Assembly (NCBI GenBank): GCA_902573085.1
Contig: CACGHY010000002.1
Coordinates: forward strand, 4,925-68,924
Reading direction: 5' to 3'
DNA: 64,000 nucleotides
Origin: an uncultured Candidatus Poseidoniales archaeon
GTDB lineage: Archaea > Thermoplasmatota > Poseidoniia > Poseidoniales > Thalassarchaeaceae
Below the pieces are notes generated by a model, which had not been told where the DNA came from, did not search any database, and saw only the letters and a program-made list of their open reading frames with translations. The position numbers and the translations under genes are program-made. Positions 8,013 to 54,895 of the stretch are shown piece by piece (position 1 is the first letter of the stretch; each line of letters starts with the position of its first letter).

Positions 8013-8731
8013 TGCAAGCCCTCCAAACCACCAAATCGGGGCGCGTTGCCCTTTTTCTCCCAATAAGAGGGCTTCAAACCGAAACGCAGGTCACTCGACG
8101 ACAGTTGGCTCAGGAGTTTCTTCCTCTGCTCCAAAGCGTGGTCGAACTCCTCATCCATATACTGATTGCGAGGAGATCGGGCTATCTGGTTTATTATCTC
8201 GCTCATGAGGTCCGCACGTTCCTCGTTGGCCGTGTAGTAGTCCTCCTCGCTCTGGATGGCCCTATCGACCTCATCCTGACTCAACTGGCGTATCAGGTGA
8301 GGGGGTATCACCTTGTTCGACCTGCGTTGGTCCTTGGGTTCGTTGAACGCCGGTTCGTCCGGTCGGATGCGTGGTTCTGGCATGAAGAAGGGCGAATCCG
8401 GGTGTCGGTCGTCTATCTCTAGCACCACCGGCCCCCCGCCCTCCTCCTCGTCGTCCACCCAATCCTTCGCGCTAGTGATTGCGGCTTGCTTGCCACCCAT
8501 GGTGCTAAGGCTCGGTTTTGCCTTGTCCCCATAGAAGAAGTTCCAATTTCCTCCGAAAATGTCCTCCATCTGTTGGTCATCGAAGCCAAGTGCCTCCTGT
8601 ATCTCCTCCATGTCAAAATCATACAACTGTGGGGCGTGATCTGTCGGCTTCAACCCCTCTTGCATGATTTTCTTGGCATTTTCGGCTGTTGTGCCATGGT
8701 AAACCGGCATTTTCACGACTTCCCAAGCCAT
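8009..8731 (-). CDS. FDxAW-leader family protein (240 aa) with PARP/Tpt1-like ART-fold candidate; first gene of the array
   Basis: Track ORF 8009..8872. MAWEVVKMPVYHGTTAENAKKIMQEGLKPT starts at ATG 8731. An upstream GTG at 8749 would give MGGAFSMAWEVVK, which aligns better with the leader. PVVLEIDD and KVIPPHLIRQL parallel 2656..3237. Confidence 0.5.
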   Translation of the reverse strand: MAWEVVKMPVYHGTTAENAKKIMQEGLKPTDHAPQLYDFDMEEIQEALGFDDQQMEDIFGGNWNFFYGDKAKPSLSTMGGKQAAITSAKDWVDDEEEGGGPVVLEIDDRHPDSPFFMPEPRIRPDEPAFNEPKDQRRSNKVIPPHLIRQLSQDEVDRAIQSEEDYYTANEERADLMSEIINQIARSPRNQYMDEEFDHALEQRKKLLSQLSSSDLRFGLKPSYWEKKGNAPRFGGLEGLQ

Positions 8732-8757
8732 GCTAAACGCTCCGCCCACGAATTTGG

Positions 8758-8961
8758 AAAAAAACCATGCTTTATCGCAGTTATGACAGCATTTTTCCCG
8801 AAAATTTTGGTCCGAGAAAAAAAACAGCAACGATTTTGGAGCGTTTTTGCCTTTTTCATCCCGATCGGGCAACCCTGACAGCCCTGACAGAAAAAAACCC
8901 GGAAATTGTCCGCCGAGCGTATGCGGTTAGGCCGGGGGGCTTCGCAGAAAAAAAAAAAAAA
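8758..8961 (+). repeat. Four phased poly(A) tracts, each preceded by G (G-A7, G-A8, G-A7, G-A14)
   Basis: A-runs at 8758-8764, 8817-8824, 8891-8897 and 8948-8961, with start-to-start spacing of 59, 74 and 57 bp. Confidence 0.8.
8873..8890 (+). repeat. Perfect tandem 9-mer CCCTGACAG x2, abutting the third A-tract
   Basis: 8873-8881 and 8882-8890 are identical, followed by AAAAAAA. Confidence 0.85.
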
Positions 8962-9045
8962 TTCCATGCCTAATTTTCGCATGGCTCCGGCGACCCGGAG
9001 GGGAGCCGGGGGGCCACGCATTGGCGGAGGGGGCGGCGGGCTGTA

Positions 9046-9268
9046 CGCCCACCACCCGATGCGCTCCGATGGCATCCGATACGGGGCGATGGGGCATCCC
9101 ACACACGCCCACCACATCCACCCGCATCCACCCACATCAACGGCCATCGGCGGGGGGCCGGGGAGGAGGCGTGGAGGGGGCATGGAGCGGGCCTATCGCC
9201 ACCTCCCACCACCCACCATCGGCCACTGTCTATCAATGCCCATCGGAGGCTATCGCCACGCCCACCAC
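9046..9268 (+). repeat. C-rich iterons: CGCCCACCAC x3 perfect plus one single-mismatch copy; a 19-20 nt unit CTATCGCCAC-[C/-]-[T/G]CCCACCAC occurs twice
   Basis: The perfect 10-mer occurs at 9046-9055, 9106-9115 and 9259-9268, with CTCCCACCAC at 9203-9212. CTATCGCCAC occurs at 9193-9202 and 9250-9259. A degenerate CCCCACCAC lies at 9534-9542. Confidence 0.8.
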
Positions 9269-9431
9269 CGACCTCCCACATCGCCCGCCATCGACCCCCA
9301 TTTTTTCCGGATCGCCCGCCACATCACACGCCGTCGCGCTGATGGTGGTGGGATGACCGGAGAGGGGTGCGGACGGGGGTTAGCCACAGCCCGCTTCGGA
9401 TGGTGCAATTGGCATACAAATAGCAGACAAT

Positions 9432-9457
9432 TAGACACTAGACTAGACAACTTAGAC
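9432..9457 (+). repeat. Cluster of four TAGAC pentamers
   Basis: TAGAC at 9432, 9439, 9444 and 9453, within ttagacactagactagacaacttagact. Confidence 0.7.
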
Positions 9458-9751
9458 TATACAACAGAAGACTGACCTGAGAATACGTTTCGGAGGGTAG
9501 GGGTATCGACCTTTGTCTGTTGTCTCCCATCCACCCCACCACGCCCCCAGAACCGTTGCACCAAGGCCCTGTTTCGGTGTCTGTGGATAGAAGACATGGG
9601 TGTGTCGGATGTCTGCTGAAATCGCACCACGTCTAGCCCCGATCTGGTCCCGTCCAAAACCGAGCCACTCACACGGGGGAAAGGGTGGGACTCAAATAGT
9701 CCCCCCACTACCGAGACACTACCGGCAATGACCGGACGGAAGTGAAAAAGT

Positions 9752-12700
9752 ATGAAGAATGCAATGAGAACAGCAATGATGACCGCCCTTCTGGTAGTGC
9801 TAATCAGCACCCAGAACGTAGTCACCGAGGAGACAGCAATCCCCTCGGCAGACAGCGAGATGAACACCGAGATTGCAATTGTCGGAGGCCTCTATGACCT
9901 AGCCCCGAAGAGTCGTCTTAGGCCATCGGCCAGACAGGCCCAGAACCACAACCGGAGGGTACAGATTCTCCGAGACATGGGACTCATCCAGAGCCGATCC
10001 AATGGATGGCCTAGATTAGCCGTTCTAGGGCTTGTTCTAGCCCTTGGACTACTACACCCTGCTCTGGGTCTAGTCGGAGCCGTAGGAGCGGTTCTGGAGG
10101 CCCCAGAGACTACCATGGAGCATGACCCCACCAACCCAGAGACTATCGAGAAGATGAAGGCAGACCACGCCGCTAGGCCAGAGTGGTTGAAGGCCATCAA
10201 GGACAAGGCCCTAGACCAGATGTGGGAAACCTTCGGACCCCTCCTAGAGGGTAGCCTCCCATCATGGCAGAAGCCTTGGAAGATGGTCATGAATGGCATA
10301 GAATACACCGTCAGCAGACCAGTAAACGCCCTGACCGGGAGAGCATACAAGGGGGCCAATATCTTCACCCTATCAGGCCGATTCTATCCGGTCTGGGCCA
10401 CCCAGAAGCAGGTCAATCAGATAGCCCGGAAACTCAAGATTGAGTTGGTCTGGGACGAGGATTACCAGACCGATTACAAGGAGAACCCCGGCTCATACAT
10501 GGTCGATGTGGATGGAGAGATGAAGCCCATAATCAAGGACTCATTTGAGAGAAATGGAGAGCAGAGAGCGATCTGGGTTCCATTCCTCAAGACCTTCTGG
10601 GTCGAGGCCAAGGACGCCTCTGGAAACGTGATAATGGACCCCAAGACCGGGAAGGCCAAGAAGAAGCGAATCCAGAAGGCCCAGAAGGGTCTAGGAGGCA
10701 TGACAGTCGGTAAGGAGGCATTGGTCTGGAACATCGAGGACATCAACCTTCCAACAGACCGTGTGCTAGAGATTGTCCCAGACTTTGAGAACACTCAACC
10801 CAAGACTCCGGTCAAGGAGGATATACCCGTAGTCGAAGGGGCCAAGACTCTTGTCGATTCAATCCTGAATAACCTCACAGGTCTGAGATACAAAGAGGCC
10901 CCAAACAGGGCCTTCTATTCCCCTGCTCAGGACTACATATCCATGCCCCCGGCAGGGACGTTCAAGGACAACGGTGTAACGGCTCTGGAGGCCTTCGCGG
11001 CAACCCTAGCCCATGAGGCCGCTCATGCCACAGGACATCGCCTGAGACTCGCTAGAGCCATGGGAAATCCATTCGGGTCCAAGGGCTATGCGAGGGAAGA
11101 GTTGGTCGCTGAATTGGCCGCTATGATGGTAATTAGAGCATGGGGCATGAATGACGTAGCCCCACAGCACGGAGCATACCTGAAATCATGGGCCACCAAG
11201 TATGTCGGTTCACCCGATCCGGAGAATCCCGATGTGTGGATGGACTCATGCCGTGGAGTGTTGAAGGAGGCCGCTAACGCCTCTGAGTGGATTCTCTCTG
11301 GAATGCCAGAGTGGTTCAAGGGAGCCAAGACCACCGAGGGCCAAGAGATTGAGGAGGAGAAGCCCATGCCCGCTAACGCGGCTTCCATGGACATCTCAGA
11401 CCTGCCTTCTGGGTATCTATTCAGAGCGATGGCACAGGACAACGGGGGGGGCAGAGATGCCCCCTCCCAATGTTGCTCTGGATGCTCCGATGACTCTGGA
11501 GAAACCATCACGATTGAGTGGAATATCAACACCCTGAATGCCCCCGGCTTTGAGAAGATGGCAAAGAGAATCCAGAGGGCATTTGACCGCCGTGGATTGA
11601 CCTTTGAGTATGAGGTCAAGGATGCCGTCTGGGTCACTGAGATGCGCTCCCTCTATGGTGTCGCCGCCGATGCCGCCAGAGCGCGAGGTGATCCAACCGA
11701 GGTCGAATTCAGAGTCATGAGAACCCCTGTCTCTGTGACCCATTCTCCGCTCACTGACAAGGGATACGAGGCCATGGCTACCCTAGTGCCATTTGACCCC
11801 TCTGTGACGCCTCTGACGGACACAGAGATGCTCATCAGACCCATACCCACCACAGAGGAGAATGAGGACGATAGGAACCTTTGGATTAGCGAGCAATTGG
11901 CTAAGAGATACGGCCATGGAAATGCGATCGCATATGACCCAACAGTCTGTGACCATTGTGACCAGAGAAAGAGCAATCGAAAGAAACTGGTTCTGGTCCG
12001 AGATACCAACAACGCCGATGCTGATGCTCTGGTGATTGGTTCGTCCTGCCTCTATGACTACACTGGAGTGGACCCCGATATGCTAGAGAAACTGTTCACC
12101 ATCAGGGCGAATCACAGCCCCTACGAGGGCATGGAAACCGACCCTCTATCATGGAGGAAAAACATTGCCAGAATGGAGATAACCGAGTTCGTGGATTTGG
12201 TGGGAGAGAATGCCGCTATCTTCGGTTCATACAGGAGAGGTCTAGGAGGCACGGCCATGGGCCAGTGGATGGGATACACAGTCAAGGAGTATATCTCTGA
12301 TTTCGATAGGTGGGGGAAGCCGATTGACACGACCGCCGCTTACAGGATTGTCTCCAATCCAAGGCCCAAGTACGACAACCCGAACGGACCTCAGATTATC
12401 GAGAGGCCACCGACTTACGAGGCAGTCCATGTAGGGGGCATCAGGAAGTGGGTTCTGGATGCTCTTGAGGCCTCGGTAAAGGAGAACCAGACCGACACCT
12501 TCGGTCGCACCCTAGCGACCGTCCAGAGAGCCGGATATGTGACTTACAAGACAGCCAATTTTGTGGCCGGTTCGTCCTCCAGATATTGGAAGGAGACAAC
12601 ATCCTACACCAAGGAAATCAGGGACGCCGCGAAGTCCACAGATCTGACTGCCTTCCCTGCTCAGGCAGGGACCAAGTGGACCGGGAATCTGGTTGCGACC

Positions 12701-15700
12701 ATTGCCGATATTCGATGGTTCGACGATCGGTTCAATCCGGGCGTCCAGAAGGCCATTGTGACGTTCGTGACCAATGAGCATAGGCTCAAGACGTTCTCTA
12801 GTGCCAAGTGGACCCAGAGCATCAAGAAGGGCCAACAAGTGACCATCACCGGATTCACGGCCAAGAAGACCGAGGACTACCAAGGACAAGGTAGTCTGGT
12901 GGTGACATACCTAAACTTCGGGGAGGCCCCTGCGGCCTCCCTGAACGCTGTTGGAGCCTTCGGATTGGTTCCGGCACTACTAGACCCCTCTATGGTGTCT
13001 ATCGCCGCTCTGGGAGCGGCTATGGTAGTGGGAGTCGTAACTGCCGGTCGGAATGATGATGATGAGGGCATTTTTAGTTACACCACAATCAATTTTGAAC
13101 AGGCCCACCAATGGTTGGATAACCTCCCTCCATGGATTGAGCCATCCCATGCCGAGGTCTATGACAACCACCAGAGAATGTATGCGAAGCATGGTCTGGC
13201 TTGCATGATGTTTGTCTTCTGGAACCGGGGCGTTTCGACCACCAGATACCCGGATGGAATCATTCAGCACGTCGTAGTTCAAGACCCAGATTTTGAGGCT
13301 GACACACAGCGTCCTCATTGGCATGGCATTCAGGACTTGTGGATTCACGCATGGACCGATTGGGATTTGGTCTTGTATGAACAGGGATGGATGAACATTG
13401 ACGAGAAGGGCAACCGGATTACTGTGGAGGAGTCTAAGTTGCGAGCCGTTGGAGCCATGGGATTCATCCCGGCACTACTAGACCCATCCATGGCCTCTAT
13501 GGTCGCTCTAGGCGTCGCTATGGTGGTCGGGGTAGTCGGTAGGACCAAGACGACGGAGGAGCCAACCTCATGCGTCCCTGCTTGCATAGCAGAGGAATAC
13601 GATCCAGAAGGCCCCTCCTTCGGCAACGATAGCGGAGAGGTCAGGGGTCAGCACTTCGATACCTGCCACAACCTAGAGGAGATGGTGAGCGAGTGCGTGG
13701 GTGAAGACCCATACACCGGACGACTAGAGCATATCCACTACTCCAGAATCAAGTGCAACTGCCTTGAGATAGCCATGGATTGGTATGAGGAGTCCGAGTT
13801 TGTCAGAGGGGTTCTGAAAGACGAGGGAGTCGGCCCATTGACCAATGGCGGACACTTAGCAGAGAGTAGTATAGTCGCTGATTCGTATGAGGACTTGGAG
13901 CGAATGAAGCACCCTGAACGCTTCGATATGTTCGGAGATAGGATTGAGGAAATAGACCCCGGCTTGCCTAACGCGGATGAGAAATTGCTTCAATGCAAAT
14001 CGTGCGGTGCATGGTCAATAATGACGCCATTCACAGACGCCGATGGAGAACCCAATCTGGTATGCGAGGCTCTGGATGAGGATGAGGTTGAATGCGGACA
14101 CATCTATTGGGGCATGGGGGCCTTCTCTCTGCTTCCGGCACTACTAGACCCTAGCCTGACCACTCTCGTGGCTCTGGGCGTGGCTATGGTAGCAGGAACG
14201 GTCCGCCTAAGCGATTTGGACAAGAGGAAAATCCCCTTTGAAACGGAGGGGGTCAATGTCCAGACATTGAAGCAGGGTGTGTCCCCACGGCAAGAAGCAG
14301 GACGGGTCTGGAAGACCATGCTAACGGGAGGAGAGCAGGAGATTCTGGATGGACATCTCTCCGACTACATCACAATCCGAAACGGGGGGTCTTCTCGCTA
14401 TGCAATCAGCAGATGCTCGTTCATGGATACTACTCTGACTCTGGCCGCATCGGTCGAGGAGCATAATGATGAAAGAGCAGTCTTCCGTGGTTGCAAGGAA
14501 TTCAGCCTGAGAGCGTATCTGGTATCGGAACATAGGAGGAAATACGATCGCATCACCACTGATGTTGCGACTGTCAATTTCAGCCTTAAAGTGAAGGATG
14601 TCGATGCTGACGGTGACGAGGTATATCGCCATAGTGACCCGGATTACAACCTAGAGGATGTCGTGGATAGGGCTGTAATGGTGACAACCGGACTAAGCGA
14701 GATGAAGATTGATGTCGATAGCACATGGAGGTCGAACAATGTAGTTACGGTGGACGCGAAATTGGTCGGTCTGGTGAGCAAGTTGAACGACATTGTGAGT
14801 GACAATCTGTATGAGGCATTCGGACTCAAGGAGGACATGGAGAAGGACACCATAGCGGTGTCATCCCCGGACGGAAAGGTCACAGCGAGCAACCCGGACA
14901 ATTGGCTATACAGAGCCTTCACCACGCCATGGGTTCTCTGTGGTGCATCGGACGTTTCTGACCTCGCGGAGGAGGCTTACGAGGCATGGGAGAGCCTGAA
15001 ACAAGCAAAGGAGTTCCACAAGGTCACAGAGGCTTCTCAGAAGGCCCTAGACACCATAGAGAGGTATGGGGGCCTCCCGGTCGAGAAGGACGCCCCAGAG
15101 GCGGCATGGGAGAAACTATCGGCCAGTAAGATTGAGACTCTTACTGAGGACTTGGAATTGACCCGAAACAATTGGGGAGACAGCAGGATGACTGATGATG
15201 TGCAGAGGGCCATCAAGGGCAACAAACACACAGGAGCATTGGCTTACATTACAAGAAAGGCAAACCGCAGGTGGTCCGATGCTATCAAGAAGTCAGGATC
15301 AGTCAGACTGCTGAAAACCTTCTTCGATAGAGACAACATTCTGGATAGGGCCAAGGAGGACTTTGCAGAGGCCATCAAGGCATACGTCAAGACCTGTGAG
15401 GAGAAAGAGGTTTGTTGGACGGAGGCAATTGTCCAACAAGGACGGTTCCAGAGTATGATGGGTCACTTCCGAGTGATGCTAGAGAATGACTTCTCCGAAC
15501 CCATCATGAGAATCTGGGCTAATGGGAGATACGATTCTCCTGTCGATGCTAGAATCTGCCGAGTCGGATTCATGTGGAATCTTGAACCAACGACGATTGA
15601 CATATTTGAGGATTGTTCGCCTGATACTATGTGGCAGGATAGGGCATTCGACTCTGACTCTGATAGTGAACACTTGAGAGTCGCTTATCGTGTCTTTGAG

Positions 15701-16027
15701 GCGAACCTCATTGAAAAGGGGCTGTTAAAGAGAACCGATAGCGGTGGCGGTGTCTCTGTCGTGTATGACGGAGAAACGCTGTCGTCGTCCGACGCCCATG
15801 CCATAGAGGATGCATTGGGAGACATGAGGAGAACGACGAGATTCATGAGTGAACATCTCATTGCTCTCCATGACTTCCAGAGCGATGCCAAGAGTGCGAG
15901 TTTTGGTGCGATGACCGACAATATCAGGGACGAAGATGCCATCCCTGACTTCATACAGGGGAAGGTTGTAACCAAGTTCCGAGACATCATGGACGACAGA
16001 CTGCCGACTGAGGAGGTGGAAGCATGA
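9752..16027 (+). CDS. Giant polyvalent protein (2091 aa): hydrophobic N-terminus, ArdC-like ssDNA-binding N-domain plus HExxH zincin domain, then about 1600 aa of uncharacterised modules separated by hydrophobic PALLDPS segments
   Basis: Single uninterrupted ORF. The start is preceded by GGAAGTGAAAAA (9738-9749). Internal motifs are listed in the sub-features, and the stop overlaps the next ATG (ATGA). Confidence 0.8.
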   Translation: MKNAMRTAMMTALLVVLISTQNVVTEETAIPSADSEMNTEIAIVGGLYDLAPKSRLRPSARQAQNHNRRVQILRDMGLIQSRSNGWPRLAVLGLVLALGLLHPALGLVGAVGAVLEAPETTMEHDPTNPETIEKMKADHAARPEWLKAIKDKALDQMWETFGPLLEGSLPSWQKPWKMVMNGIEYTVSRPVNALTGRAYKGANIFTLSGRFYPVWATQKQVNQIARKLKIELVWDEDYQTDYKENPGSYMVDVDGEMKPIIKDSFERNGEQRAIWVPFLKTFWVEAKDASGNVIMDPKTGKAKKKRIQKAQKGLGGMTVGKEALVWNIEDINLPTDRVLEIVPDFENTQPKTPVKEDIPVVEGAKTLVDSILNNLTGLRYKEAPNRAFYSPAQDYISMPPAGTFKDNGVTALEAFAATLAHEAAHATGHRLRLARAMGNPFGSKGYAREELVAELAAMMVIRAWGMNDVAPQHGAYLKSWATKYVGSPDPENPDVWMDSCRGVLKEAANASEWILSGMPEWFKGAKTTEGQEIEEEKPMPANAASMDISDLPSGYLFRAMAQDNGGGRDAPSQCCSGCSDDSGETITIEWNINTLNAPGFEKMAKRIQRAFDRRGLTFEYEVKDAVWVTEMRSLYGVAADAARARGDPTEVEFRVMRTPVSVTHSPLTDKGYEAMATLVPFDPSVTPLTDTEMLIRPIPTTEENEDDRNLWISEQLAKRYGHGNAIAYDPTVCDHCDQRKSNRKKLVLVRDTNNADADALVIGSSCLYDYTGVDPDMLEKLFTIRANHSPYEGMETDPLSWRKNIARMEITEFVDLVGENAAIFGSYRRGLGGTAMGQWMGYTVKEYISDFDRWGKPIDTTAAYRIVSNPRPKYDNPNGPQIIERPPTYEAVHVGGIRKWVLDALEASVKENQTDTFGRTLATVQRAGYVTYKTANFVAGSSSRYWKETTSYTKEIRDAAKSTDLTAFPAQAGTKWTGNLVATIADIRWFDDRFNPGVQKAIVTFVTNEHRLKTFSSAKWTQSIKKGQQVTITGFTAKKTEDYQGQGSLVVTYLNFGEAPAASLNAVGAFGLVPALLDPSMVSIAALGAAMVVGVVTAGRNDDDEGIFSYTTINFEQAHQWLDNLPPWIEPSHAEVYDNHQRMYAKHGLACMMFVFWNRGVSTTRYPDGIIQHVVVQDPDFEADTQRPHWHGIQDLWIHAWTDWDLVLYEQGWMNIDEKGNRITVEESKLRAVGAMGFIPALLDPSMASMVALGVAMVVGVVGRTKTTEEPTSCVPACIAEEYDPEGPSFGNDSGEVRGQHFDTCHNLEEMVSECVGEDPYTGRLEHIHYSRIKCNCLEIAMDWYEESEFVRGVLKDEGVGPLTNGGHLAESSIVADSYEDLERMKHPERFDMFGDRIEEIDPGLPNADEKLLQCKSCGAWSIMTPFTDADGEPNLVCEALDEDEVECGHIYWGMGAFSLLPALLDPSLTTLVALGVAMVAGTVRLSDLDKRKIPFETEGVNVQTLKQGVSPRQEAGRVWKTMLTGGEQEILDGHLSDYITIRNGGSSRYAISRCSFMDTTLTLAASVEEHNDERAVFRGCKEFSLRAYLVSEHRRKYDRITTDVATVNFSLKVKDVDADGDEVYRHSDPDYNLEDVVDRAVMVTTGLSEMKIDVDSTWRSNNVVTVDAKLVGLVSKLNDIVSDNLYEAFGLKEDMEKDTIAVSSPDGKVTASNPDNWLYRAFTTPWVLCGASDVSDLAEEAYEAWESLKQAKEFHKVTEASQKALDTIERYGGLPVEKDAPEAAWEKLSASKIETLTEDLELTRNNWGDSRMTDDVQRAIKGNKHTGALAYITRKANRRWSDAIKKSGSVRLLKTFFDRDNILDRAKEDFAEAIKAYVKTCEEKEVCWTEAIVQQGRFQSMMGHFRVMLENDFSEPIMRIWANGRYDSPVDARICRVGFMWNLEPTTIDIFEDCSPDTMWQDRAFDSDSDSEHLRVAYRVFEANLIEKGLLKRTDSGGGVSVVYDGETLSSSDAHAIEDALGDMRRTTRFMSEHLIALHDFQSDAKSASFGAMTDNIRDEDAIPDFIQGKVVTKFRDIMDDRLPTEEVEA
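10013..10102 (+). repeat. Degenerate N-terminal copy of the hydrophobic module (RLAVLGLVLALGLLHPALGLVGAVGAVLEA)
   Basis: The DNA ggactactacaccct resembles ggcactactagaccc of the three strong copies. It is a hydrophobic segment of about 30 aa. Confidence 0.4.
10169..11191 (+). other. ArdC-like antirestriction module (N-terminal ssDNA-binding domain plus zincin metalloprotease-like domain)
   Basis: LPSWQKPWKM...ALTGRAYKGANIFTL...VWATQKQV fits the ArdC-N/DUF1738 pattern. TLAHEAAHATGHRLRLAR...GYAREELVAELAAMMV (HEAAH at 11012-11026) fits the ArdC C-terminal pattern. Confidence 0.75.
12947..13051 (+). repeat. PALLDPS hydrophobic module, copy 1 (aa 1066-1100)
   Basis: AVGAFGLVPALLDPSMVSIAALGAAMVVGVVTAGR, followed by NDDDDE. 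Contains the 17-mer CCGGCACTACTAGACCC at 12971-12987. Confidence 0.85.
13445..13543 (+). repeat. PALLDPS hydrophobic module, copy 2 (aa 1232-1264)
   Basis: AVGAMGFIPALLDPSMASMVALGVAMVVGVVGR, followed by TKTTEE. The same 17-mer lies at 13469-13485. Confidence 0.85.
14111..14206 (+). repeat. PALLDPS hydrophobic module, copy 3 (aa 1454-1485)
   Basis: GMGAFSLLPALLDPSLTTLVALGVAMVAGTVR, followed by LSDLDKRK. The same 17-mer lies at 14135-14151. Confidence 0.85.
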
Positions 16028-17716: not shown

Positions 17717-17839
17717 ATGGCGACCAGTCCAGAGCAAGCAGAGGCAAATTGGGAGTTAATCAAGGGCATGGCCGCGTGGGGAGGAGTCGCTTTGCTGTGG
17801 CTCTATCTCTATGTCAAAGTCAAGGAAATCCTGAGATAA
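17717..17839 (+). CDS. 40-aa predicted membrane micro-protein
   Basis: MATSPEQAEANWELIKGMAAWGGVALLWLYLYVKVKEILR. GAGGT lies just upstream of the ATG. It is the 3' part of the otherwise implausible track ORF 17327..17839. Confidence 0.3.
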   Translation: MATSPEQAEANWELIKGMAAWGGVALLWLYLYVKVKEILR

Positions 17840-17880
17840 GGTCGGCGGGATTAAATGTCAATCCTGTCAGCACCGACGTT

Positions 17881-19464
17881 ATGAACAACGTGCCACAAGG
17901 CAACCAACCGATATTCATAATGAAGGAGGGGACGGAGCGAATCAGGGGAAAGCCCGCCCAGAGCAACAACATCGCGGCGGCTAAGGCCGTCGCTGAAACC
18001 GTGAGATCCACGCTCGGTCCAGAAGGAGCCGACAAGATGTTAGTGGACCCATCAGGAGATGTGGTCATCACCAACGACGGAGCCACGATATTGAACAGGC
18101 TAGACGTTGAACACCCTGCCGCGAAACTCATCATAGAGGTATCCGAAACCCAAGAGCAGGAGGCTCACGATGGAACGACATCAGCCGCCGTTCTGGTGGG
18201 AGCCATACTAGAACGTGCGGAGGATTTGCTAGACGACAGCATACACCAGACAATCATATGCAGGGGCTTCAAGGAGGCTCATGACTTAGCCAAGGACGAG
18301 TTAGCCACATTGGGATGGGATGCCACAGAGGAGGACTTGACTAGCGTCGCCATGACTAGCCTGACCGGGAAGAGTGCAGAAGGAGCGGCAGAGGTAATCT
18401 CAGCAATGTGCGTCGAGGCCGTCCAGACAATAGGTGATGAGGGTACGTTAGATGACATCATGGTAGCCTCATTCTCTGGTGGGACGTATGATGAGTCCGC
18501 ATTGATTCATGGTGTCCTCATAGAGAAGGAGCGAGCGCACAGCGAGATGCCCGCGAGCCTGAACGACGCTCATGTCCTACTGGTCACAGAGGAGATTGGC
18601 ATCAAGGAGTCGAAGTTCGACACGACGCTCAACATCAACAACCCAGATCAGGTCAAGGACTTCTTGGCTCAAGAGGAGGAGATGCTCAAGGGGATGTGCG
18701 CGGAGATAATATCAACAGGTGCTAATGCGGTGTTCTGCCAGAAGGAGGTGGATGACCTCGCAATGCACTATCTAGCGAAGGCCGGGATCTTCTGCCTAAA
18801 GCGCGTGAAGAAGAGCAGGATGGAGGCACTCAAGAAGGCAACGGGCGCGAGGTTCGTCAATGGCTTGGAGGATATAGACCCGGAGGACATGGGTCTGGCT
18901 TCTAGTATTGAGGAGGTCAAGTTCGGAGACTATCATTGCACGGTCCTGAAATCAGATAGGACGACAAGCGTTACTGCCGTGCTTCGTGGTAGTACCGGCC
19001 ACTCCCTAGATGAGATAGAGAGAGCATGGGACGACGCCATGGGTGTGGTTTTCCTGAGTGCTAGGGCCAAGAAATTGGTTGCAGGAGGTGGAGGAGTGTA
19101 TGCCCACCTAGCCCGACATCTGAGGTTGAAGGCCGCTACCATGGGAGACAGAAAGGGAATGGCAATCTCCGCTTTCAGCGACGCTCTGGAATCAATACCG
19201 AAGACTCTGGCGGAGAACGCCGGAATCGATCCGGTCGATGCAGTCCTCGCGCTACGCAAGGCAGAGAGCGCGGACTACGGGATAAACACACAAGGGGATG
19301 TGGTGAACATGAGGGATGCGAAGGTCATAGAGCCACACAAGGTAGTGTGGACAGCACTTGGCTCCGCTACCGAAGCCGCCATCATGATTCTAAGAATAGA
19401 CGACGTGATTAGTATGAAGGCAGGTGACGGGGGTATGCCACCAATGCCGGGGATGATGGGTTGA
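17881..19464 (+). CDS. ths: Group II chaperonin (thermosome/CCT family), 527 aa
   Basis: Starting at MNNVPQGNQPIFIMKEGTER: LGPEGADKMLV, VITNDGATIL, VEHPAAKLIIE and HDGTTSAAVL are signature motifs. The Gly/Met/Pro tail GDGGMPPMPGMMG is typical of thermosome C-termini. I chose ATG 17881 rather than the alternative start at 17749 used by the track. Confidence 0.9.
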   Translation: MNNVPQGNQPIFIMKEGTERIRGKPAQSNNIAAAKAVAETVRSTLGPEGADKMLVDPSGDVVITNDGATILNRLDVEHPAAKLIIEVSETQEQEAHDGTTSAAVLVGAILERAEDLLDDSIHQTIICRGFKEAHDLAKDELATLGWDATEEDLTSVAMTSLTGKSAEGAAEVISAMCVEAVQTIGDEGTLDDIMVASFSGGTYDESALIHGVLIEKERAHSEMPASLNDAHVLLVTEEIGIKESKFDTTLNINNPDQVKDFLAQEEEMLKGMCAEIISTGANAVFCQKEVDDLAMHYLAKAGIFCLKRVKKSRMEALKKATGARFVNGLEDIDPEDMGLASSIEEVKFGDYHCTVLKSDRTTSVTAVLRGSTGHSLDEIERAWDDAMGVVFLSARAKKLVAGGGGVYAHLARHLRLKAATMGDRKGMAISAFSDALESIPKTLAENAGIDPVDAVLALRKAESADYGINTQGDVVNMRDAKVIEPHKVVWTALGSATEAAIMILRIDDVISMKAGDGGMPPMPGMMG

Positions 19465-31206: not shown

Positions 31207-32184
31207 GTGTCGGCATTTAGTCCACCAAAGAGATACCCCGTACCGGGAAGGCCGGGACTCTTCTCTTCATACCAATGGCATCCGGGCATGAACGACGATG
31301 TGATATTGAGAGTGTCGAAGTCATCATTGGGTGATTTCGGTTTCTGCCAACAGCAGTCATTCATCAAGAGAGTCCTTGGTATCAAGTCTGAGGAGACTGA
31401 GGCTATGATTCGCGGGTCCAATGTTCATGACTCAATCGAACGCTTCTATCAAGACGTAAGCGTATCTTACGCCGCATCCATGAAGTCATACGGATTGGAG
31501 AACGTCGAGAAGTATTTCATGGAGTTTGTTGGTGAGGGCGATCCGAAGCGCGGTCCCTATGAATTGGATGAGGAACAGCACTTGACGAAATACATGAAAC
31601 TTGAAGCAGAGCGATTCATGAATTGTGCTGACCCTCACTTCTTCCTTCCGATTGGCAATGAGGTAAGTCTGGACGCGGTAGTCACCATAGAGGGACAGTT
31701 AGTTCACCTCACAGGAATCGTGGACAGGTTGTTCGCTGATGCCGAGGGAATACCTCATGTTCATGAGTTGAAGACAGGTATGTGGAAAGACCACAAGCCC
31801 TCAAAGTGGAGTAACATGAGAGAGGAGATGGCATACTATGTCATGCTCTTGAAAGAATGCGACCATGAGGTTCTGGGTGGTCTGGAGTGCGAGCGATGGG
31901 GGTGGGACCACACAGGAGGCTATGCGTCTAAGGAGGGCGAGGAGCCGGACGCGGTGTGGCGTGGTGTGGAGGATGTCCGGCAGAAGGACATGGACTCCAT
32001 GATGGATAAATTGAGATTACTGGTGCGGACGTATAATCAATACAAGGGCGATTTAGATGGTAGGGCCTTTGCATTGATTGATTTCTGGAGAGCGCAGGAG
32101 GTCATTTGTGAACCTTGGTGCGATCTTAAGGGATATTGTCCTCGCTATGAGAAGATTCTATGGCCCTACCCTCAAGAGGGCTAG
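31207..32184 (+). CDS. Cas4/RecB-family PD-(D/E)xK nuclease with Cys cluster (325 aa)
   Basis: GIVDRLF...HVHELKTG gives the D...ExK core. An N-terminal Cys (GFCQQQ) and the C-terminal CEPWCDLKGYCPRY form a four-Cys Fe-S-type arrangement. Confidence 0.6.
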   Translation: MSAFSPPKRYPVPGRPGLFSSYQWHPGMNDDVILRVSKSSLGDFGFCQQQSFIKRVLGIKSEETEAMIRGSNVHDSIERFYQDVSVSYAASMKSYGLENVEKYFMEFVGEGDPKRGPYELDEEQHLTKYMKLEAERFMNCADPHFFLPIGNEVSLDAVVTIEGQLVHLTGIVDRLFADAEGIPHVHELKTGMWKDHKPSKWSNMREEMAYYVMLLKECDHEVLGGLECERWGWDHTGGYASKEGEEPDAVWRGVEDVRQKDMDSMMDKLRLLVRTYNQYKGDLDGRAFALIDFWRAQEVICEPWCDLKGYCPRYEKILWPYPQEG

Positions 32185-33410: not shown

Positions 33411-33682
33411 TGAGTGAAGACAAAGACATAGATGAGATAAGAAGAGAGAAAGCGGCGAAATTACTGGCCGCGTTTGACAGCGAAGATCCAGAACAAGCAG
33501 AGGCAATACGAGAAGCGATGCCGTGGTCGATAGCGGTACATAAGGACAGGCCCACAGATTTTGAGGTAAGATTGGAAGGTAAGGTGATAGCACTCACTCA
33601 AAGTGAGGAATGGGCGCAGTTGGTTGTTGAGTTGATGAATAGGCTCTTACTTGCGGAACAAGCAGGGGTCGGTTGGCCGTGA
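33410..33682 (+). CDS. Hypothetical acidic protein (90 aa)
   Basis: Track ORF 33401..33682 starts at GTG. I chose the in-frame ATG at 33410. Confidence 0.5.
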   Translation: MSEDKDIDEIRREKAAKLLAAFDSEDPEQAEAIREAMPWSIAVHKDRPTDFEVRLEGKVIALTQSEEWAQLVVELMNRLLLAEQAGVGWP

Positions 33683-34383
33683 CCAAGGTTCTCTATATTG
33701 ACAATCGTGAACGCTCAGGCCTTGAGGATCTCGTCAAGAAGTATTGCGATAAGAAGGGACTCTCCTATGTAATCAACCAGAACATGATTACTGACTACGC
33801 ATTTGCAAGTGTGGGCATCGAGGCAAAGAGCATATCTGATTACATGAGCAGTCTGTATTCGGGTCACTTGGAGAGGCAATTGCAGAATCTTGATGATAAC
33901 TACAACCAATTTGCCTTGGTGGTGTGGGGGTCGCTAGACCAATACATAACGAAGGCGAGGAGAGGTGGTCGGAAGACGAGTTACCCCAAGGTGTTCGGCT
34001 CGTTCTATGGGTCGATAGCGAGATTCCACAATGACTACGATGCCAGTATCCTAATCATGCCCGACAGATCATCAGCCGCTCGATTCATCTGCAAGCGTTT
34101 TGAGAAGCATGGCTCACTCAGCGCACCCACGACGTACCGTCTGCTTCGCAAGACGGCATCAGAGGACAGGAGGATAGACATCCTCAGAGCCGCAGGATGT
34201 AGCGAGGCAATAGCCAAGCGACTTCTTGCTACCTTCGGCTCAATCTCAGAAATCACATCATGTTCTCCGAAGGAATTACAAGCGGCGGAGGGTGTTGGCA
34301 AAATCCGCGCCAACCGAATCCTGCTCTGTCTCAACAGCGAGGAGCCGGTTGCCGATGAGAAAGTGAAGATGAAGAGGGCTTGA
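33673..34383 (+). CDS. XPF/Mus81-family ERCC4 nuclease with C-terminal (HhH)2 domain (236 aa)
   Basis: VLYIDNRERSG ... ITDYAFASVGIEAKSISDYMSSLYSGHLERQLQNL fits the ERCC4 pattern D.RE / GDY / E-x-K..D..S...G.L..Q. The C-terminal ILRAAGCSEAIAKRLLATFGSISEI...LQAAEGVGKIRANRIL is a tandem helix-hairpin-helix. Confidence 0.65.
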   Translation: MAVTKVLYIDNRERSGLEDLVKKYCDKKGLSYVINQNMITDYAFASVGIEAKSISDYMSSLYSGHLERQLQNLDDNYNQFALVVWGSLDQYITKARRGGRKTSYPKVFGSFYGSIARFHNDYDASILIMPDRSSAARFICKRFEKHGSLSAPTTYRLLRKTASEDRRIDILRAAGCSEAIAKRLLATFGSISEITSCSPKELQAAEGVGKIRANRILLCLNSEEPVADEKVKMKRA

Positions 34384-38558: not shown

Positions 38559-38903
38559 TCAACGCACCTCCATCAGGACATCCACGCGAACCTCGTTCGT
38601 GCTGTTCTTGTCTATGGGTAGGAAGGTGGCTCGGTAGGCAGGAGTGTCTAGTGCGGTATCACCATGCAGGGCCACCTCCTTGATGCTCTGGGAGGATGTC
38701 TGTTGCGTGTCGAAGTTAGCGGAGATTGCGATAGTCCTGTCGTCTATCTTGGTGACTTGGGGGGTGACTGTGATCTGTGGCGTCCCCGCTCCCCCGTCCC
38801 TGCTCGACGCATCCCCTCCGTTGGAACCGAGGGTCATGCGAGTGACTAGACTAGAGAGATGATCGGTCAAAGCGGACTTCAAGGAATCTAGCACCGGCAT
38901 CAT
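38559..38903 (-). CDS. Small tail-module protein (114 aa)
   Basis: Track ORF whose start overlaps the stop of the 2717-aa gene (ATGA-type). Confidence 0.55.
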   Translation of the reverse strand: MMPVLDSLKSALTDHLSSLVTRMTLGSNGGDASSRDGGAGTPQITVTPQVTKIDDRTIAISANFDTQQTSSQSIKEVALHGDTALDTPAYRATFLPIDKNSTNEVRVDVLMEVR

Positions 38904-41900
38904 TTCACCTCGTAATACAGGCTCTTGCTCGTGCCGATGGCCCGCCCTCGCTTGTTCCCGTCACGCACACCGATTTTGCCCATCCCATTAGTGTGTTTCG
39001 CCCCTATAATGAATCCTGTATTGCTCACGCTACGCACAAATACCTTGTGGACTGCAACCACATTGATGCCGCTTGACAATGACACTTCTGCTACATCGAC
39101 CACCTTACCCGCCGCATCGTCTAATGGACTGGCGTTACCTGATACTGCTTGTAGGTCGGACAGTATGCCCTCTATGCCCTTGTCATACTGTGCCACTATG
39201 AAATCGCTAGTGGATTGGATGTAGTTGTGAGTCGCTTCAAAGACCATGTATTCTCCACGGAGGCCATGCATGGGCAGGTCGATGTTGATTATCTCACCGG
39301 GCTGAACCATGGATGCTTTGATGGCTCCGCTAATTGTTATGAGAGGTGCGCTGTTCTCGGATCGTGACAGTATGGACTTGGCGAGTTTCAATGCCTCGCT
39401 GTTGGTCTTGAGTCCGGGTATCTCCTGTCTCAATGTCCTGACTAGGTTGCTACTTGCTCCCTTGCTTGCCTCCTTCTTCATCCTCTCTAAGTCCTTTACG
39501 ACGACAAAGACCCTTTCGTTCTGGGCTAGTTGGTCGCCCACAATCACTATCTCATTTGGAGAGTCAAACATCTTGCTCGCAGTTACACTACGGATTGCAC
39601 TACCCATACCGAAGGTCATGCCCTTGTTATTGAATACGTTCGATGAGTAAACCATGGCTCCGTTCTTCTCATTGATTAGTTGCTTGCCATCTATCTGACT
39701 CAGATTGCGTATGACCTCCATGACATTCAGGCCCTTCGTCTTGCGGGCGGTGAAGATAGCGGAGTGGTCGGACACGAGGCGGAGGGAGGGGTGGGCGTCG
39801 AGGGTGGATGAGATTTCCCTGTCCTTCCCTAGCAAGGCACTCGTCGGAGTCACGTTGAAGCCCGCTAGGTCTGAGCCGGAGTCATCGAGTAGCATCATCG
39901 CGGCGTCGCTAGTCCTGACGCCTATGTATCCCTGCTGTCCCATTAGGATTGGACCCTGTGACAGTCCGAAGTCTGTGAGGCTGTCAGCCTCTATGTTCCT
40001 GAACAGCAAGAAGGTGGATAACTCGTCCTTCTCCACACCGGCAATCCTCAGAGCCGTATTCTTTTGGTCGAACAGGTAGGGTGGGAAGTCGGTGTCGGTG
40101 ACTTCCTTGCCGTCAAATCTGATTGCGGTGATGGAGGGGGATGATGTCGATACGAGAGCCGAGGTCTTGCCGTTGTCTATGATTAGTGGCCTCTGGTTAA
40201 TCATCATGAAGTCCGTCGGGTCATACTCCAACAGGCCTCTATAACCGAGAGTGGTCTGCTTGACCGCATCATTGGTGACATCGTACCTGTGCCATGTCGC
40301 GGACACCTGCTTGGCTAGGGTGATTGCATTGTCGATGTATGTCGGAGACACCAGATGAGGCGTGGTGAGCGATCTTATGTCGGAGATGGCAGATGGGCTA
40401 GTCACCGTCGTGTATCTGAGTATCTGTCCCGTCAAGTCCGATACCCCGGTGCTGTTGGTTATCCCTGTGAGTTTGTTCTTGCTCTTGCCTGTGTATGTCA
40501 CCTTGCCCTTGCCCACTATGAACAGAGTGCCAGAGGCGGGCAACAGGGATGCGTCCTCAAGGAACACGTTATTGTTGGAACCCGCGTGTTTCGTGACTTT
40601 GAACTGTGGATAAAGTCTCATGGTCGAGTCCATGTGGGTGTGCGTCACCGCATCTGGTGTAGTCTGCTTCACGAAGTCACCGCTAATGCCTGTCCCCTCT
40701 GCTCTGTACCTTGTCTCTGACTGGTGCAGGGACTCGCCTCCACCCGGATGCGTAGTCTGTGAGTATCGTGCTTCTATCTCTGGGTTGAACTCTCCATCGA
40801 CAGTCTTGCGAACAGCATCCGATTTGAAGAATTGAAGCATGGATGCACTAGGTAGCAGGTGGAACACCGCATCGTGTTCATTGGCATCGGGATATGTGAT
40901 TTGGAATATTCCCTCGGCGGTCGATATGAATTTCAAGTCACCTAGATTCCTCTCCATGTTTGCCTCAAAGACACCATACCTGTTGTCTCTGGTGAATGCC
41001 TGATGCTCAAGGTCAGCATCTCCGTATGATGATCTAGCACCCATCAACCAACCGTCTTGCTGTATGTCAGAAGCAAAGCCGAAGAGTTTCAATGGGCGAA
41101 CGGGTCTTACGAAGTAGTCAATGGACTTCCTTCTCTGGTTAGATGTGGTGGCGTTTCCATCCGTGCCAAACACGTCCGTGGTCAATGTTCCTTCCTCTGT
41201 CCTGTTGAGATACGTCTTCCTCAGAATGTACGTCCCACCCCATGGTGGCAAATCAGCAGAGCCACGGACAGCCCAATAGTCCATGCCATGAGTCTTGGAT
41301 GCAATTAGCAAATCAGGATTAGTGGGTAACGATACAGTCGCTACCACGACAGCACTCGATCCTCCTTCATTGACAACGATGGTCGGCGTGGTTGTGTAGC
41401 CTGAACCTCCCGCGCCTATGCTCACCGATACCAACGGCCCTGTCGAACCCAATACTGCTGTTGCCGTCTGTGCAGTACCTCCTCCCTTCAAGTGAGTCGT
41501 AGGCAGGGTTATCGCAGGGGCAGAAGTGTATCCGCTTCCTCCGTTGTTACCAATCGTCACGGCTGTTATAGTGCCTGTCTGAGTATGCCCACCTGCCAAT
41601 GAAGCCGTCAGCGATTCTCCTGTCCCTCCCGGAGCAGAGACAGATGGCGCAGAGGTGTATCCATCCCCTTGATTATTGACCGTGACTGATACTATCGTGC
41701 CGTTGGTTGTTGCCGCGCTTATGTCTGCTACTACGTTTCCTGCATTGTTAAAGGAAATAGTGTTTCCACCGGCATATGCCGATTGTCCGTTCAAGAACAA
41801 CTGAACTGTTTTTGTCCCTCCTGATGTGAATCCTGCACCGGCATTGGTTATGTTGTAGGCGTTGCCTCCCGCACGAACGTAATATTTGCTACCGACTTTT

Positions 41901-53665: not shown

Positions 53666-54895
53666 TCATATACCCACCAGTTGCTCGACTGCCGCGAACT
53701 CTAACTCGTAGCCCCAATAACCATCACCTGCGTTAAAGGTCGGATTGTAACTCTTGAGAACGGCAGGGATAGCAACTCCCTGCTCCAAGAATGGGTTTGG
53801 TCGGATAGTCTCGTTGTTCACTACGGTAGTGGGGTCGAAGGCCCGGTTGTTCTCCTCGGAGGAGAAGTCGGTTCCCACTCCAGATGGAATCAGGTATTGC
53901 CTTAGCACCTTGCTTCCTGAACTGGACGATGCTAGTGACTCATATGGTATTCTGACTCCAACCACATACTTCTTTACCGTCTTCATCTGATCGACGCGGA
54001 GGAAGCGGGATGCATCCTTGGAAGAGACACCATCTGGTATGTCTATGACGGAACCTGCTATCGCGTTTGGAGATACCAAAGCACCTCCTGCGCTCATGTT
54101 GGTGAGATTGAGCAAGTCCTGTACCTTGTCCTCCATGGTCTTCTTCTGACTCGATGCTCCGCCAGACATACTGGTGACTAGGAACTGATTGCTCCACGTC
54201 GCTCCTGCGTCATCCTTCGACACGGTTACTACATGGTCGCCGTTAGCCCCCTCGACCGTGTTCTTGATTGTGATTCGCTCGCCGTTGAAACCGGAGCCGC
54301 CCTGTGCATCTTGGGATAGTGTCTCCATCTGACCAGATGCCTGTGTGACGGTCAATATGGATGAGCAACCAGTAGTAGCGGTATTGACCTTGACCGATGC
54401 GCTGTTGATTGCACTAGCAATCGTATCGGCTAGGCTATCAGAGGAGGTCGTCGAGGAGATGTTAATCACGATGATGCTGTTGGTGGCTACTGTCGATGAG
54501 CCAGATCCGTTCTTCAATTGCAATGTGATGTCCTCTCCCAAGTTAGCATTGATTTGCCCGGTGGTCTGAAATCGTATGCTAACGCCATCCAAGTCAGACT
54601 TGACCGCGTTCCAACTTGCATACAACTCGTACCACGTCGCTTGAAGGGACTGACTGCCGTTGATTGAGGTGTCAATCGTCATGGATGAACCGGCTCCTCC
54701 TGTCGCGTCTGTGTCGTCCGTGAATATCCCGCTAACGGCTATGCCCACTTGTGACTGGTTCAAGTCCAGACCGACACGGGTGTTGATGATGGCGATGGGG
54801 TAGTGAGTCACCTCCCTCTGTACGTTGAAGGTTATCCTGTCAGCATCCAACTCCGTGACGGTGCTATCCCTGTGTATCATCTGAATCCTCGGCAT
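53666..54895 (-). CDS. Putative distal-tail/baseplate protein (409 aa)
   Basis: Position immediately downstream of the tape measure gene, with a 1-nt start/stop overlap. No diagnostic motif, so the call is by synteny only. Confidence 0.5.
   Translation of the reverse strand: MPRIQMIHRDSTVTELDADRITFNVQREVTHYPIAIINTRVGLDLNQSQVGIAVSGIFTDDTDATGGAGSSMTIDTSINGSQSLQATWYELYASWNAVKSDLDGVSIRFQTTGQINANLGEDITLQLKNGSGSSTVATNSIIVINISSTTSSDSLADTIASAINSASVKVNTATTGCSSILTVTQASGQMETLSQDAQGGSGFNGERITIKNTVEGANGDHVVTVSKDDAGATWSNQFLVTSMSGGASSQKKTMEDKVQDLLNLTNMSAGGALVSPNAIAGSVIDIPDGVSSKDASRFLRVDQMKTVKKYVVGVRIPYESLASSSSGSKVLRQYLIPSGVGTDFSSEENNRAFDPTTVVNNETIRPNPFLEQGVAIPAVLKSYNPTFNAGDGYWGYELEFAAVEQLVGI

Follow-up and report, generated by a model that had tools for sequence, protein, structure and literature searches.

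An ArdC-bearing giant protein with recurrent translated linkers: a candidate modular counter-defence protein of a magrovirus-like archaeal virus

What would a marine archaeal virus do with a single protein of 2091 amino acids (aa) that opens as an antirestriction protein and continues through a series of other modules? The question is raised by an open reading frame (ORF), hereafter the giant, located in a stretch of 64,000 nucleotides (nt) of contig CACGHY010000002.1, assigned to an uncultured Poseidoniales archaeon. We call this whole stretch the window, and all positions refer to it. With moderate confidence, we read the giant as a putative modular polyvalent protein for counter-defence and DNA handling, encoded by a magrovirus-like virus, in which recurrent hydrophobic linkers would serve as recombination joints and would tether the modules to the membrane. 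This reading was built from sequence comparisons and predicted structures.

The gene itself has an ATG start, zero internal stops, and a Shine-Dalgarno-like (SD-like) sequence, recognised by direct sequence reading:

9752..16027, plus strand: whole giant ORF, 2091 aa plus stop
9738..9745, plus strand: SD-like sequence GGAAGTGA, 6 nt 5' of the giant's ATG

A preliminary description of the locus had reported an uninterrupted ORF of this length at 9752-16027, the motifs SWQKPWKM, TGRAYKGANIFTL, WATQKQV, LAHEAAHATGHRLRLAR, and YAREELVAELAAMMV, and a Cys-rich stretch. All of these were found, with the cysteines at positions 1274, 1278, 1305, 1315, 1335, 1337, 1415, 1418, 1438, and 1448. The same description called the giant the first plus-strand gene, and it is indeed the first convincing one past the strand switch. 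The sole plus-strand ORF upstream (8906-9475, TTG start, 189 aa) lies in a G+C-rich region that is similar to the relatives in several reading frames simultaneously; as conservation in multiple frames at once suggests a non-coding region, this ORF is probably not a gene. The description had left room for an artefactual fusion of several genes, but the single-gene status stands: homologues of 1808-3205 aa, each encoded by one ORF, occur in assemblies made independently for ENA, Logan, JGI, and Tara, with contigs reaching 84.5 kb, and the recurrence of full-length giants of 2161, 2201, 3200, and 3205 aa across independent assemblies rules out a frameshift fusion. The giant is not the tape measure protein either, as a separate tape measure gene is located at 54895-56319.

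The family is seen only in ENA, Logan, and Tara data, plus a few JGI/IMG protein records, as indicated by a series of null searches. Among GenBank phages, the giant gene had zero nucleotide matches, and tblastn with the protein retrieved distant ArdC genes only (24-42% identity). The scan of IMG/VR with the whole protein returned nothing, and that with an alignment of the ArdC region returned distant ArdC loci only. Nothing was found in JGI metagenomes and GTDB genomes with an alignment of the module called M2 below.

By sequence, the N-terminal third of the giant is an ArdC unit (aa 120-560), made of an ArdC-N domain and a zincin:

10220..10432, plus strand: ArdC-N domain of single-stranded-DNA-binding type, aa 157-227 (Pfam ArdcN PF08401; PHROG 7245)
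10877..11194, plus strand: zincin domain of the metallopeptidase family MPTase-PolyVal, aa 376-481 (Pfam PF18818; 6I89/6SNA)
11012-11026, plus strand: HEAAH motif of the zincin, with EELVAE 3' of it

This assignment, first made from motifs, is upheld by Pfam, PHROGs, and the sequences of the ArdC crystal structures. Over the residues listed above, the Pfam score was 30.4 bits for ArdcN (cut-off 22.6, E=4.9e-7) and 98.5 bits for MPTase-PolyVal (cut-off 27.5, E=3.9e-28), and PHROG 7245, annotated as "anti-restriction protein", spans aa 173-485 (E=1.2e-37). A profile of the N-terminal region of the family matches the ArdC structure sequences 6I89 and 6SNA at E=9e-27; in this alignment, LAHEAAHATGH of the giant pairs with LAHEATHWTGH of ArdC, and YAREELVAE with YAFEELIAE. 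Residues H421, E422, H425, E449, and E450 are invariant across the family alignment, and the predicted zincin metallopeptidase thus keeps its catalytic residues intact. A spacer of ~150 aa separates the two domains, and the identity of the unit to bacterial and phage ArdC proteins is about 24-40%.

The closest characterised comparison is ArdC of the IncW plasmid R388 (6I89/6SNA), which defeats type I restriction in the recipient and has a metalloprotease domain (PMC7213743). The two proteins share the domain pair and its order, and their sequences align over HExxHxxGH and YAxEELxAE. For both, one would expect an early action against restriction, on the DNA that enters the cell. The plasmid protein, however, is a stand-alone product of about 300 aa from a bacterial element, whereas the unit described here is embedded in a 2091-aa protein of an archaeal virus; moreover, unlike in R388 ArdC, it is preceded by a hydrophobic leader and a hydrophobic segment and contains the long inter-domain spacer.

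We compared the contigs of six relatives: L016 and L017 (both encoding P0003), L018 (P0005), L019 (P0004), L020 (P0002), and L021 (P0020). In all six, the plus strand begins with the giant, past a divergent gap of ~0.3-1.2 kb to the nearest called gene and facing a minus-strand gene array. An ArdC-bearing giant of 1808-3200 aa occupies this slot in five of them, and that of L021 has no ArdC. The giant is upstream of the thermosome gene in L016, L017, L018, L019, and L020; for L021, no thermosome gene was called in the 2.4 kb downstream of the giant, which is all the sequence covered there. The neighbours of the giant are collinear with those of L016 and L020, at 57-95% aa identity (75-78% for the thermosome). 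Within the giant gene itself, collinearity with L020 is limited to the ArdC part; the remaining modules are relocated and 30-45% identical. A fast-changing mosaic gene between stable neighbours is what one would expect of a counter-defence locus.

After the ArdC unit, the giant alternates modules with three copies of a hydrophobic linker of 34-38 aa:

11453..12937, plus strand: module M2, aa 568-1062 (phrog_2319; OB fold by predicted structure)
11948-12049, plus strand: Zn-ribbon-like sequence motif of M2, CDHC...NRKKLV...GSSC
12644-12925, plus strand: C-terminal OB fold of M2 (AF2 model and Foldseek)
12938..13051, plus strand: linker 1, aa 1063-1100, SLNAVGAFGLVPALLDPSMVSIAALGAAMVVGVVTAGR, with the 17-nt core CCGGCACTACTAGACCC at 12971-12987
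13052..13438, plus strand: module M3, aa 1101-1229, without Pfam, PHROG, NCBIfam, or PDB sequence match
13439..13540, plus strand: linker 2, aa 1230-1263, with the 17-nt core at 13469-13485
13541..14104, plus strand: module M4, Cys-rich by its Cys positions, aa 1264-1451
13982-14104, plus strand: CxxC...C...CxH mini-module, the last 41 aa of M4, part of a ~200-nt island shared with L020
14105..14206, plus strand: linker 3, aa 1452-1485, with the 17-nt core at 14135-14151
14207..16024, plus strand: module M5, aa 1486-2091, homologous to an internal module of P0001, P0002, and P0003

The anatomy of the linker was drawn from 26 copies in eight proteins. The 15 residues that precede it are acidic (108 D/E against 37 K/R), and its N-half, typically xGAFGxxPALL, has 10-16 residues, none of them charged. 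At the centre stands Asp-Pro-Ser/Thr, invariant in all 26 copies; the C-half counts 15-22 uncharged residues, typically MxSMVALGVAMVVG, and the first charged residue past it is K/R in 20/26 copies.

The linker is highly specific to this family. An exhaustive HMMER search of 1.84 billion representative proteins with a 42-position profile matched 9 proteins. Eight are family members or fragments, including the giant P0020, which carries linkers without ArdC, so that the linker occurs independently of ArdC; the remaining match, to the low-complexity repeat protein P0019, was judged spurious. Within the window, the giant ORF is the only match. A word-index homology search with the linker alignment found nothing, while the same profile succeeded in the exhaustive HMMER search. 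A degenerate linker DNA pattern had zero matches in IMG/VR or JGI metagenome contigs. The tripartite look of the linker (D-P-S/T, uncharged stretch, K/R) recalls C-terminal sorting signals such as PGF-CTERM, PEP-CTERM, and LPXTG. Unlike them, however, the linker is repeated and lies inside the protein, and the giant has no match at E<=0.1 to any model of NCBIfam, a library that probably includes sorting-signal models.

When a module is placed last in a protein, it ends exactly at the would-be start of a linker: the window protein stops at ...EEVEA where P0001 runs on as ...EEEAEAMGAVGAF. Because terminal modules stop where a linker would start, we regard the linker as an inter-module device and not as part of a module. 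In the module maps obtained by BLASTP, the window protein reads leader, TM0 (a hydrophobic segment), ArdC, M2, linker 1, M3, linker 2, M4, linker 3, M5, and P0001 reads leader, TM0, ArdC, Mx, linker, M5, linker, Zn module, linker, My+M2. M2 is the C-terminal cassette in P0001, P0002, and P0003; M5 shares 31% identity over about 670 aa with P0001 and P0003, where it stands in a different position. P0004 has six linkers and a UvrD-like SF1 helicase at its end, P0005 has both ArdC and an SF1 helicase, and P0020 lacks both ArdC and MPTase and combines the leader with linkers and an SF1 helicase.

At the DNA level, the 17-nt core is identical in all three linkers of the window, against 0.16 chance matches expected. 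Synonymous codons vary among the linkers of L016, which indicates that the constraint acts mainly on the protein and rules out selection on DNA alone for the core. A 61-nt island of 98% identity is common to linker 2 of the window and a linker of L016; the modules on both sides of it are unrelated, and the flanking 30-nt bins drop to 17-47% identity. Another island, of ~200 nt and 93% identity to L020, spans the Zn mini-module and half of linker 3 and ends inside this linker; for comparison, the DNA of the collinear ArdC region is 73.5% identical to L020. Furthermore, each half of a linker co-varies with the module on its own side, upstream or downstream. As near-identical linker DNA lies between unrelated flanks, the linkers appear to act as in-frame homologous-recombination joints, with the breakpoints of module exchange falling inside them.

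In the mosaic genomes of lambdoid phages, short conserved boundary sequences flank exchangeable modules and are possible sites of homologous recombination. The joints of the giant differ from these boundaries in being translated within one ORF; being translated, they are also under protein-level constraint, visible in the invariant D-P-S/T and the hydrophobic halves.

The linkers are not the only hydrophobic parts of the giant, as its N-terminus carries three further features:

9752..9829, plus strand: signal-peptide-like leader, aa 1-26, MKNAMRTAMMTALLVVLISTQNVVTE (hydrophobicity and conservation in relatives)
9899..9973, plus strand: conserved basic motif, aa 50-74, LAPKSRLRPSARQAQNHNRRVQILR (family alignment)
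10010..10099, plus strand: TM0, a 30-aa uncharged hydrophobic segment with a central HPA, aa 87-116 (hydrophobicity; conserved in relatives)

We ranked all 19-residue stretches of the giant on a simple biological hydrophobicity scale. The top five fall in the three linker C-halves, TM0 (second), and the leader (aa 7-25, fifth). These five segments are rich in Ala, Gly, and Val, with a charge bias at the linkers, acidic before and K/R after. The leader is conserved in the alignment with P0001, P0003, and P0004, and P0002 and P0020 have similar N-termini. The counterpart of the basic motif in P0020 is KRLRPAGNQYRQRQK. The NRRVQIL motif was considered as a twin-arginine translocation (Tat) signal and dropped, as it is too distant from the hydrophobic segment.

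Among the other modules, M2 gave the clearest indications. The family phrog_2319, of unknown function, matches it at aa 910-1046 (E=1.2e-9). Its AF2 model is partly usable, with a confidence score (pLDDT) of 58 overall and 66-85 over the OB part. In Foldseek searches, the top PDB matches were RPA/SSB and other nucleic-acid-binding OB folds (E about 1e-3), and BFVD yielded near-full-length matches (E down to 2e-13) to phage proteins of ~390-450 aa that are uncharacterised. On the basis of the phrog_2319, OB-fold, and BFVD matches, M2 is a cassette version of a stand-alone phage protein that probably binds DNA. Stand-alone phrog_2319 proteins of ~390-450 aa are found, for instance, in Vibrio phage YC and Erwinia phage phiEa2809, and M2 matches them including the C-terminal OB fold; in these bacteriophages the protein is a separate gene, whereas M2 is an internal cassette fused directly after ArdC. 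M2 alone gave nothing in a word-index homology search and no significant tblastn match among phages, and no credible match came from PDB sequence searches with M2, M3+M4, and M5. For M5, the AF2 model was too poor to use (pLDDT 48), and its Foldseek matches are meaningless.

Taken as a modular counter-defence and DNA-handling protein, the giant would be made early in infection, and its ArdC unit, like plasmid ArdC, would counter restriction by the host and so shield the viral DNA on entry or during replication. Its other modules (OB fold, Zn modules, and the SF1 helicase in relatives) may contribute DNA-directed activities. Co-infecting relatives would swap whole modules at the linkers with the frame kept, thereby diversifying the counter-defence repertoire. 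Each linker would most likely fold as a short, marginally hydrophobic helix-turn-helix with D-P-S/T at its tip, and these hairpins may hold the modules at the membrane, on its cytoplasmic face. A hairpin is preferred to single-pass transmembrane helices, which we set aside because the membrane would then separate the ArdC of P0005 from its helicase.

The polyproteins of eukaryotic RNA viruses contain internal signal or anchor sequences, and pore-forming toxins contain hydrophobic helical hairpins with acidic tips. The linkers resemble both, in their ~30-aa uncharged repeats and in the putative acidic tip; this is an analogy, without sequence relationship. Unlike the RNA-virus polyproteins, the giant comes from a double-stranded DNA virus of prokaryotes, and cleavage or membrane insertion at its linkers is putative.

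The giant is close in organisation to the polyvalent proteins surveyed by Iyer et al. in 2017 (PMC5512222): it is likewise a mosaic found on an invasive element, with ArdC-N, MPTase, and disparate modules (phrog_2319/OB fold, Zn modules) in one polypeptide, and its architecture is variable, with modules permuted among relatives whose neighbouring genes are collinear. The preliminary description had called such a protein unusual in an archaeal virus, and this is borne out, as almost all polyvalent proteins longer than 1000 aa in that survey are bacterial (PMC5512222). A term search of the survey found transmembrane segments, signal peptides, and a recurring linker unmentioned, and the magrovirus descriptions examined do not mention ArdC, polyvalent proteins, or such a leader or linker. 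A literature search combining ArdC and archaeal viruses, judged by titles and abstracts, returned nothing on marine archaeal viruses. The giant departs from known ArdC and polyvalent proteins in host domain, genomic context, hydrophobic leader, and dedicated linker. The N-terminal leader, the three family-specific linkers, and the permuted module order of the relatives are features that go beyond what had been described earlier for this locus.

Several observations weigh against the interpretation given here. First, polyvalent proteins of phages typically have late or virion genes as neighbours or carry a MuF fusion (PMC5512222), whereas the giant does not adjoin late genes, heads the replicative arm, and has no MuF. 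Either the mode of delivery differs or the analogy with polyvalent proteins is loose. Second, with 10-16 aa the linker N-half falls short of a canonical membrane-spanning helix, and the hydrophobic segments are marginal (summed 1.2-3.9 kcal/mol on the simple scale), so that their membrane insertion is not assured. Third, very strong purifying selection, rather than recombination, could partly explain the near-identical linker DNA, although the linkers of L016 do differ in their synonymous codons. Lastly, M3, M4, and M5 yielded no functional assignment in the Pfam, PHROG, and PDB sequence searches, nor M5 in those with its model.

In a more far-reaching reading, the linker could be a dual signal of a kind not described before. 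At the DNA level, it would be a translated recombination joint through which related viruses trade effector cassettes in frame, and at the protein level a site of processing or membrane anchoring. The giant would then be a genuine polyprotein of a double-stranded DNA archaeal virus, cut or anchored into several membrane-associated effectors; we give this reading a low probability.

The main rival explanation, a true polyprotein, seems unlikely. In that case, the giant would be cut at or near each D-P-S/T core, or after the hydrophobic C-half, by the zincin in cis, a capsid maturation protease, the host signal peptidase, or an intramembrane protease, which would release module-sized proteins, some with an N-terminal hydrophobic anchor. 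The invariance of D-P-[ST] in the 26 copies with their stereotyped flanks, the ends of terminal modules exactly before a would-be linker, and the small residues that often precede K/R after the C-half (TAG|R, VVG|R, MVKA|E) all agree with such cutting, and autoproteolytic release of domains by the MPTase has been proposed for polyvalent proteins (PMC5512222). However, P0020 has linkers but no MPTase, and the zincin in cis is therefore not the general protease. Cutting of the signal-peptidase type implies an alternating topology, which would again separate the ArdC and the SF1 helicase of P0005, and the lack of any NCBIfam match to the giant (E<=0.1) also speaks against a processing signal.

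The giant could instead be a polyvalent protein packaged in the virion and ejected with the DNA, its Ala/Gly-rich segments inserting in the host membrane as a DNA conduit or anchor and its soluble modules acting in the cytoplasm. We consider this quite improbable, even if the mosaic of ArdC-N and MPTase fits the polyvalent proteins proposed to travel with DNA (PMC5512222), the adjoining array of leader-bearing genes, opposite the giant, may encode packaged cargo, and a marginal hydrophobicity may suit post-translational insertion. In fact, the giant heads the replicative arm, on the thermosome/nuclease strand and about 21 kb, in window coordinates, from the tail genes, Pfam shows no MuF or other virion-associated domain in it at E<=1, it lacks the MTAFDxAW leader of the adjoining array, and a separate tape measure protein is encoded at 54895-56319. 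Overall, a position at the head of the replicative arm, without virion-gene neighbours or MuF, argues mildly against delivery with the DNA. A membrane-tethered replication or repair scaffold, in which ArdC-N, the OB fold, and the SF1 helicase of the relatives would act on replication intermediates, is very improbable, because core replication proteins are normally conserved and collinear whereas the giant gene is the most rearranged and divergent locally, with modules gained and lost between close relatives as expected of arms-race genes, and because the ArdC-N and zincin pair is, among the studied proteins, tied to anti-restriction (PMC7213743), despite the first place of the giant in the replicative block, the recurrence of DNA-binding and helicase modules in the family, and a slot kept in all relatives.

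If the giant is a counter-defence protein with exchangeable modules, it matters for several reasons. Almost nothing is known of counter-defence in viruses of Poseidoniales (Marine Group II), and this family is a concrete candidate, which would extend the polyvalent proteins longer than 1000 aa to archaeal viruses. The linker offers a testable diversification mechanism, the in-frame exchange of cassettes at a translated joint, and raises the possibility of membrane-tethered or processed sets of effectors. Its profile is also a specific probe for new members of the family and for cataloguing unknown effector modules.

The archaeal-virus context that the preliminary description had suggested is supported by the other genes of the window, both those for a thermosome and a nuclease of the Hef/XPF type and those for tape measure and tail fibre-like proteins:

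17749-19464, plus strand: thermosome subunit (NCBIfam equivalog NF041082, 580 bits against a cut-off of 450)
31207-32184: PD-(D/E)XK nuclease (domain match)
33673-34383: ERCC4+HhH nuclease of the Hef/XPF type (domain profile matches)
38900-47053, minus strand: giant ORF of 2717 aa, with the next one directly downstream of the tape measure gene, without Pfam match
47047-53664, minus strand: giant ORF of 2205 aa, with a Pfam Laminin_G_3/concanavalin-like domain near the C-terminus
54895-56319, minus strand: tape measure protein
57457-59634, minus strand: 724-aa protein with a weak Phage_tube_2 match (24.3 bits, under the cut-off of 27) and without PHROG match
60382-63861, minus strand: tail fibre-like protein

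These genes form two opposed blocks, replicative and structural. Thermosome-bearing tailed viruses (Caudoviricetes) with opposed blocks are the magroviruses (Magrovirales) of marine Poseidoniales (PMC5434244; PMC10768690), and the identification of the window as a magrovirus-like archaeal tailed virus is well supported, its host presumably belonging to the same order. PolB, MCM, PCNA, RFC, and AEP were not recognised among the scanned proteins of the window, which covers 64 kb of a genome of ~82-85 kb; the magrovirus versions of these proteins are divergent. The 64 kb gave no tRNA gene and no nucleotide match among GenBank phages.

As several independent contigs of the family fall at 82.0-84.5 kb (82033, 82401, 83585, and 84506 bp), complete genomes of about 82-85 kb are suggested; the genomes of Aoguangviridae, quoted at 90-100 kb, are somewhat larger (PMC10768690). 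Tara Oceans samples, those of the <0.22 um fraction among them, are the source of cluster mates of the giant's relatives.

The thermosome ORF as listed has a TTG start and 571 aa. Its profile matches begin only at aa 53-81, for which reason the true start is probably an internal Met near MNNVPQGNQPIFIMKEG. Between the giant and the thermosome, the window has small ORFs only. L016, L017, and L020, whose giants have no SF1 helicase, carry in this interval a separate DEAD/ResIII helicase gene of ~485 aa, and P0004, P0005, and P0020 hold an SF1 helicase inside the giant. Among the structural genes, the 724-aa protein is far bigger than usual tail tube proteins, and the ORFs of 2717 and 2205 aa presumably encode unusually large proteins of the tail, baseplate, or fibres.

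On the other side of the giant lie two further features:

61-8872, minus strand: leader array, at least 10 consecutive genes with a ~12-aa leader M(T/S/D)AFDxAWxxxK(MP) and unrelated bodies
8873-9751: divergent intergenic region, G+C 0.56 (8-10 kb bin) against about 0.48 to its left

The leader of the array also heads most genes of the matching arrays in L016, L018, L019, and L021, and a predicted C5 DNA methylase of L016 (PF00145, 7730-8983) bears the leader-like sequence IFDSAWKTITK. This arrangement looks like variable cargo under a common signal for targeting or processing; the internal proteins of phage T4 share a capsid-targeting sequence in a comparable manner. The divergent region contains poly-A runs and many repeats of the CCACC/CCCAC type, and its conservation with L016 and L020 in several frames indicates non-coding conservation. 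The cumulative GC-skew minimum of the window falls in the 8-10 kb bin, and the region is compatible with an origin of replication and/or divergent promoters.

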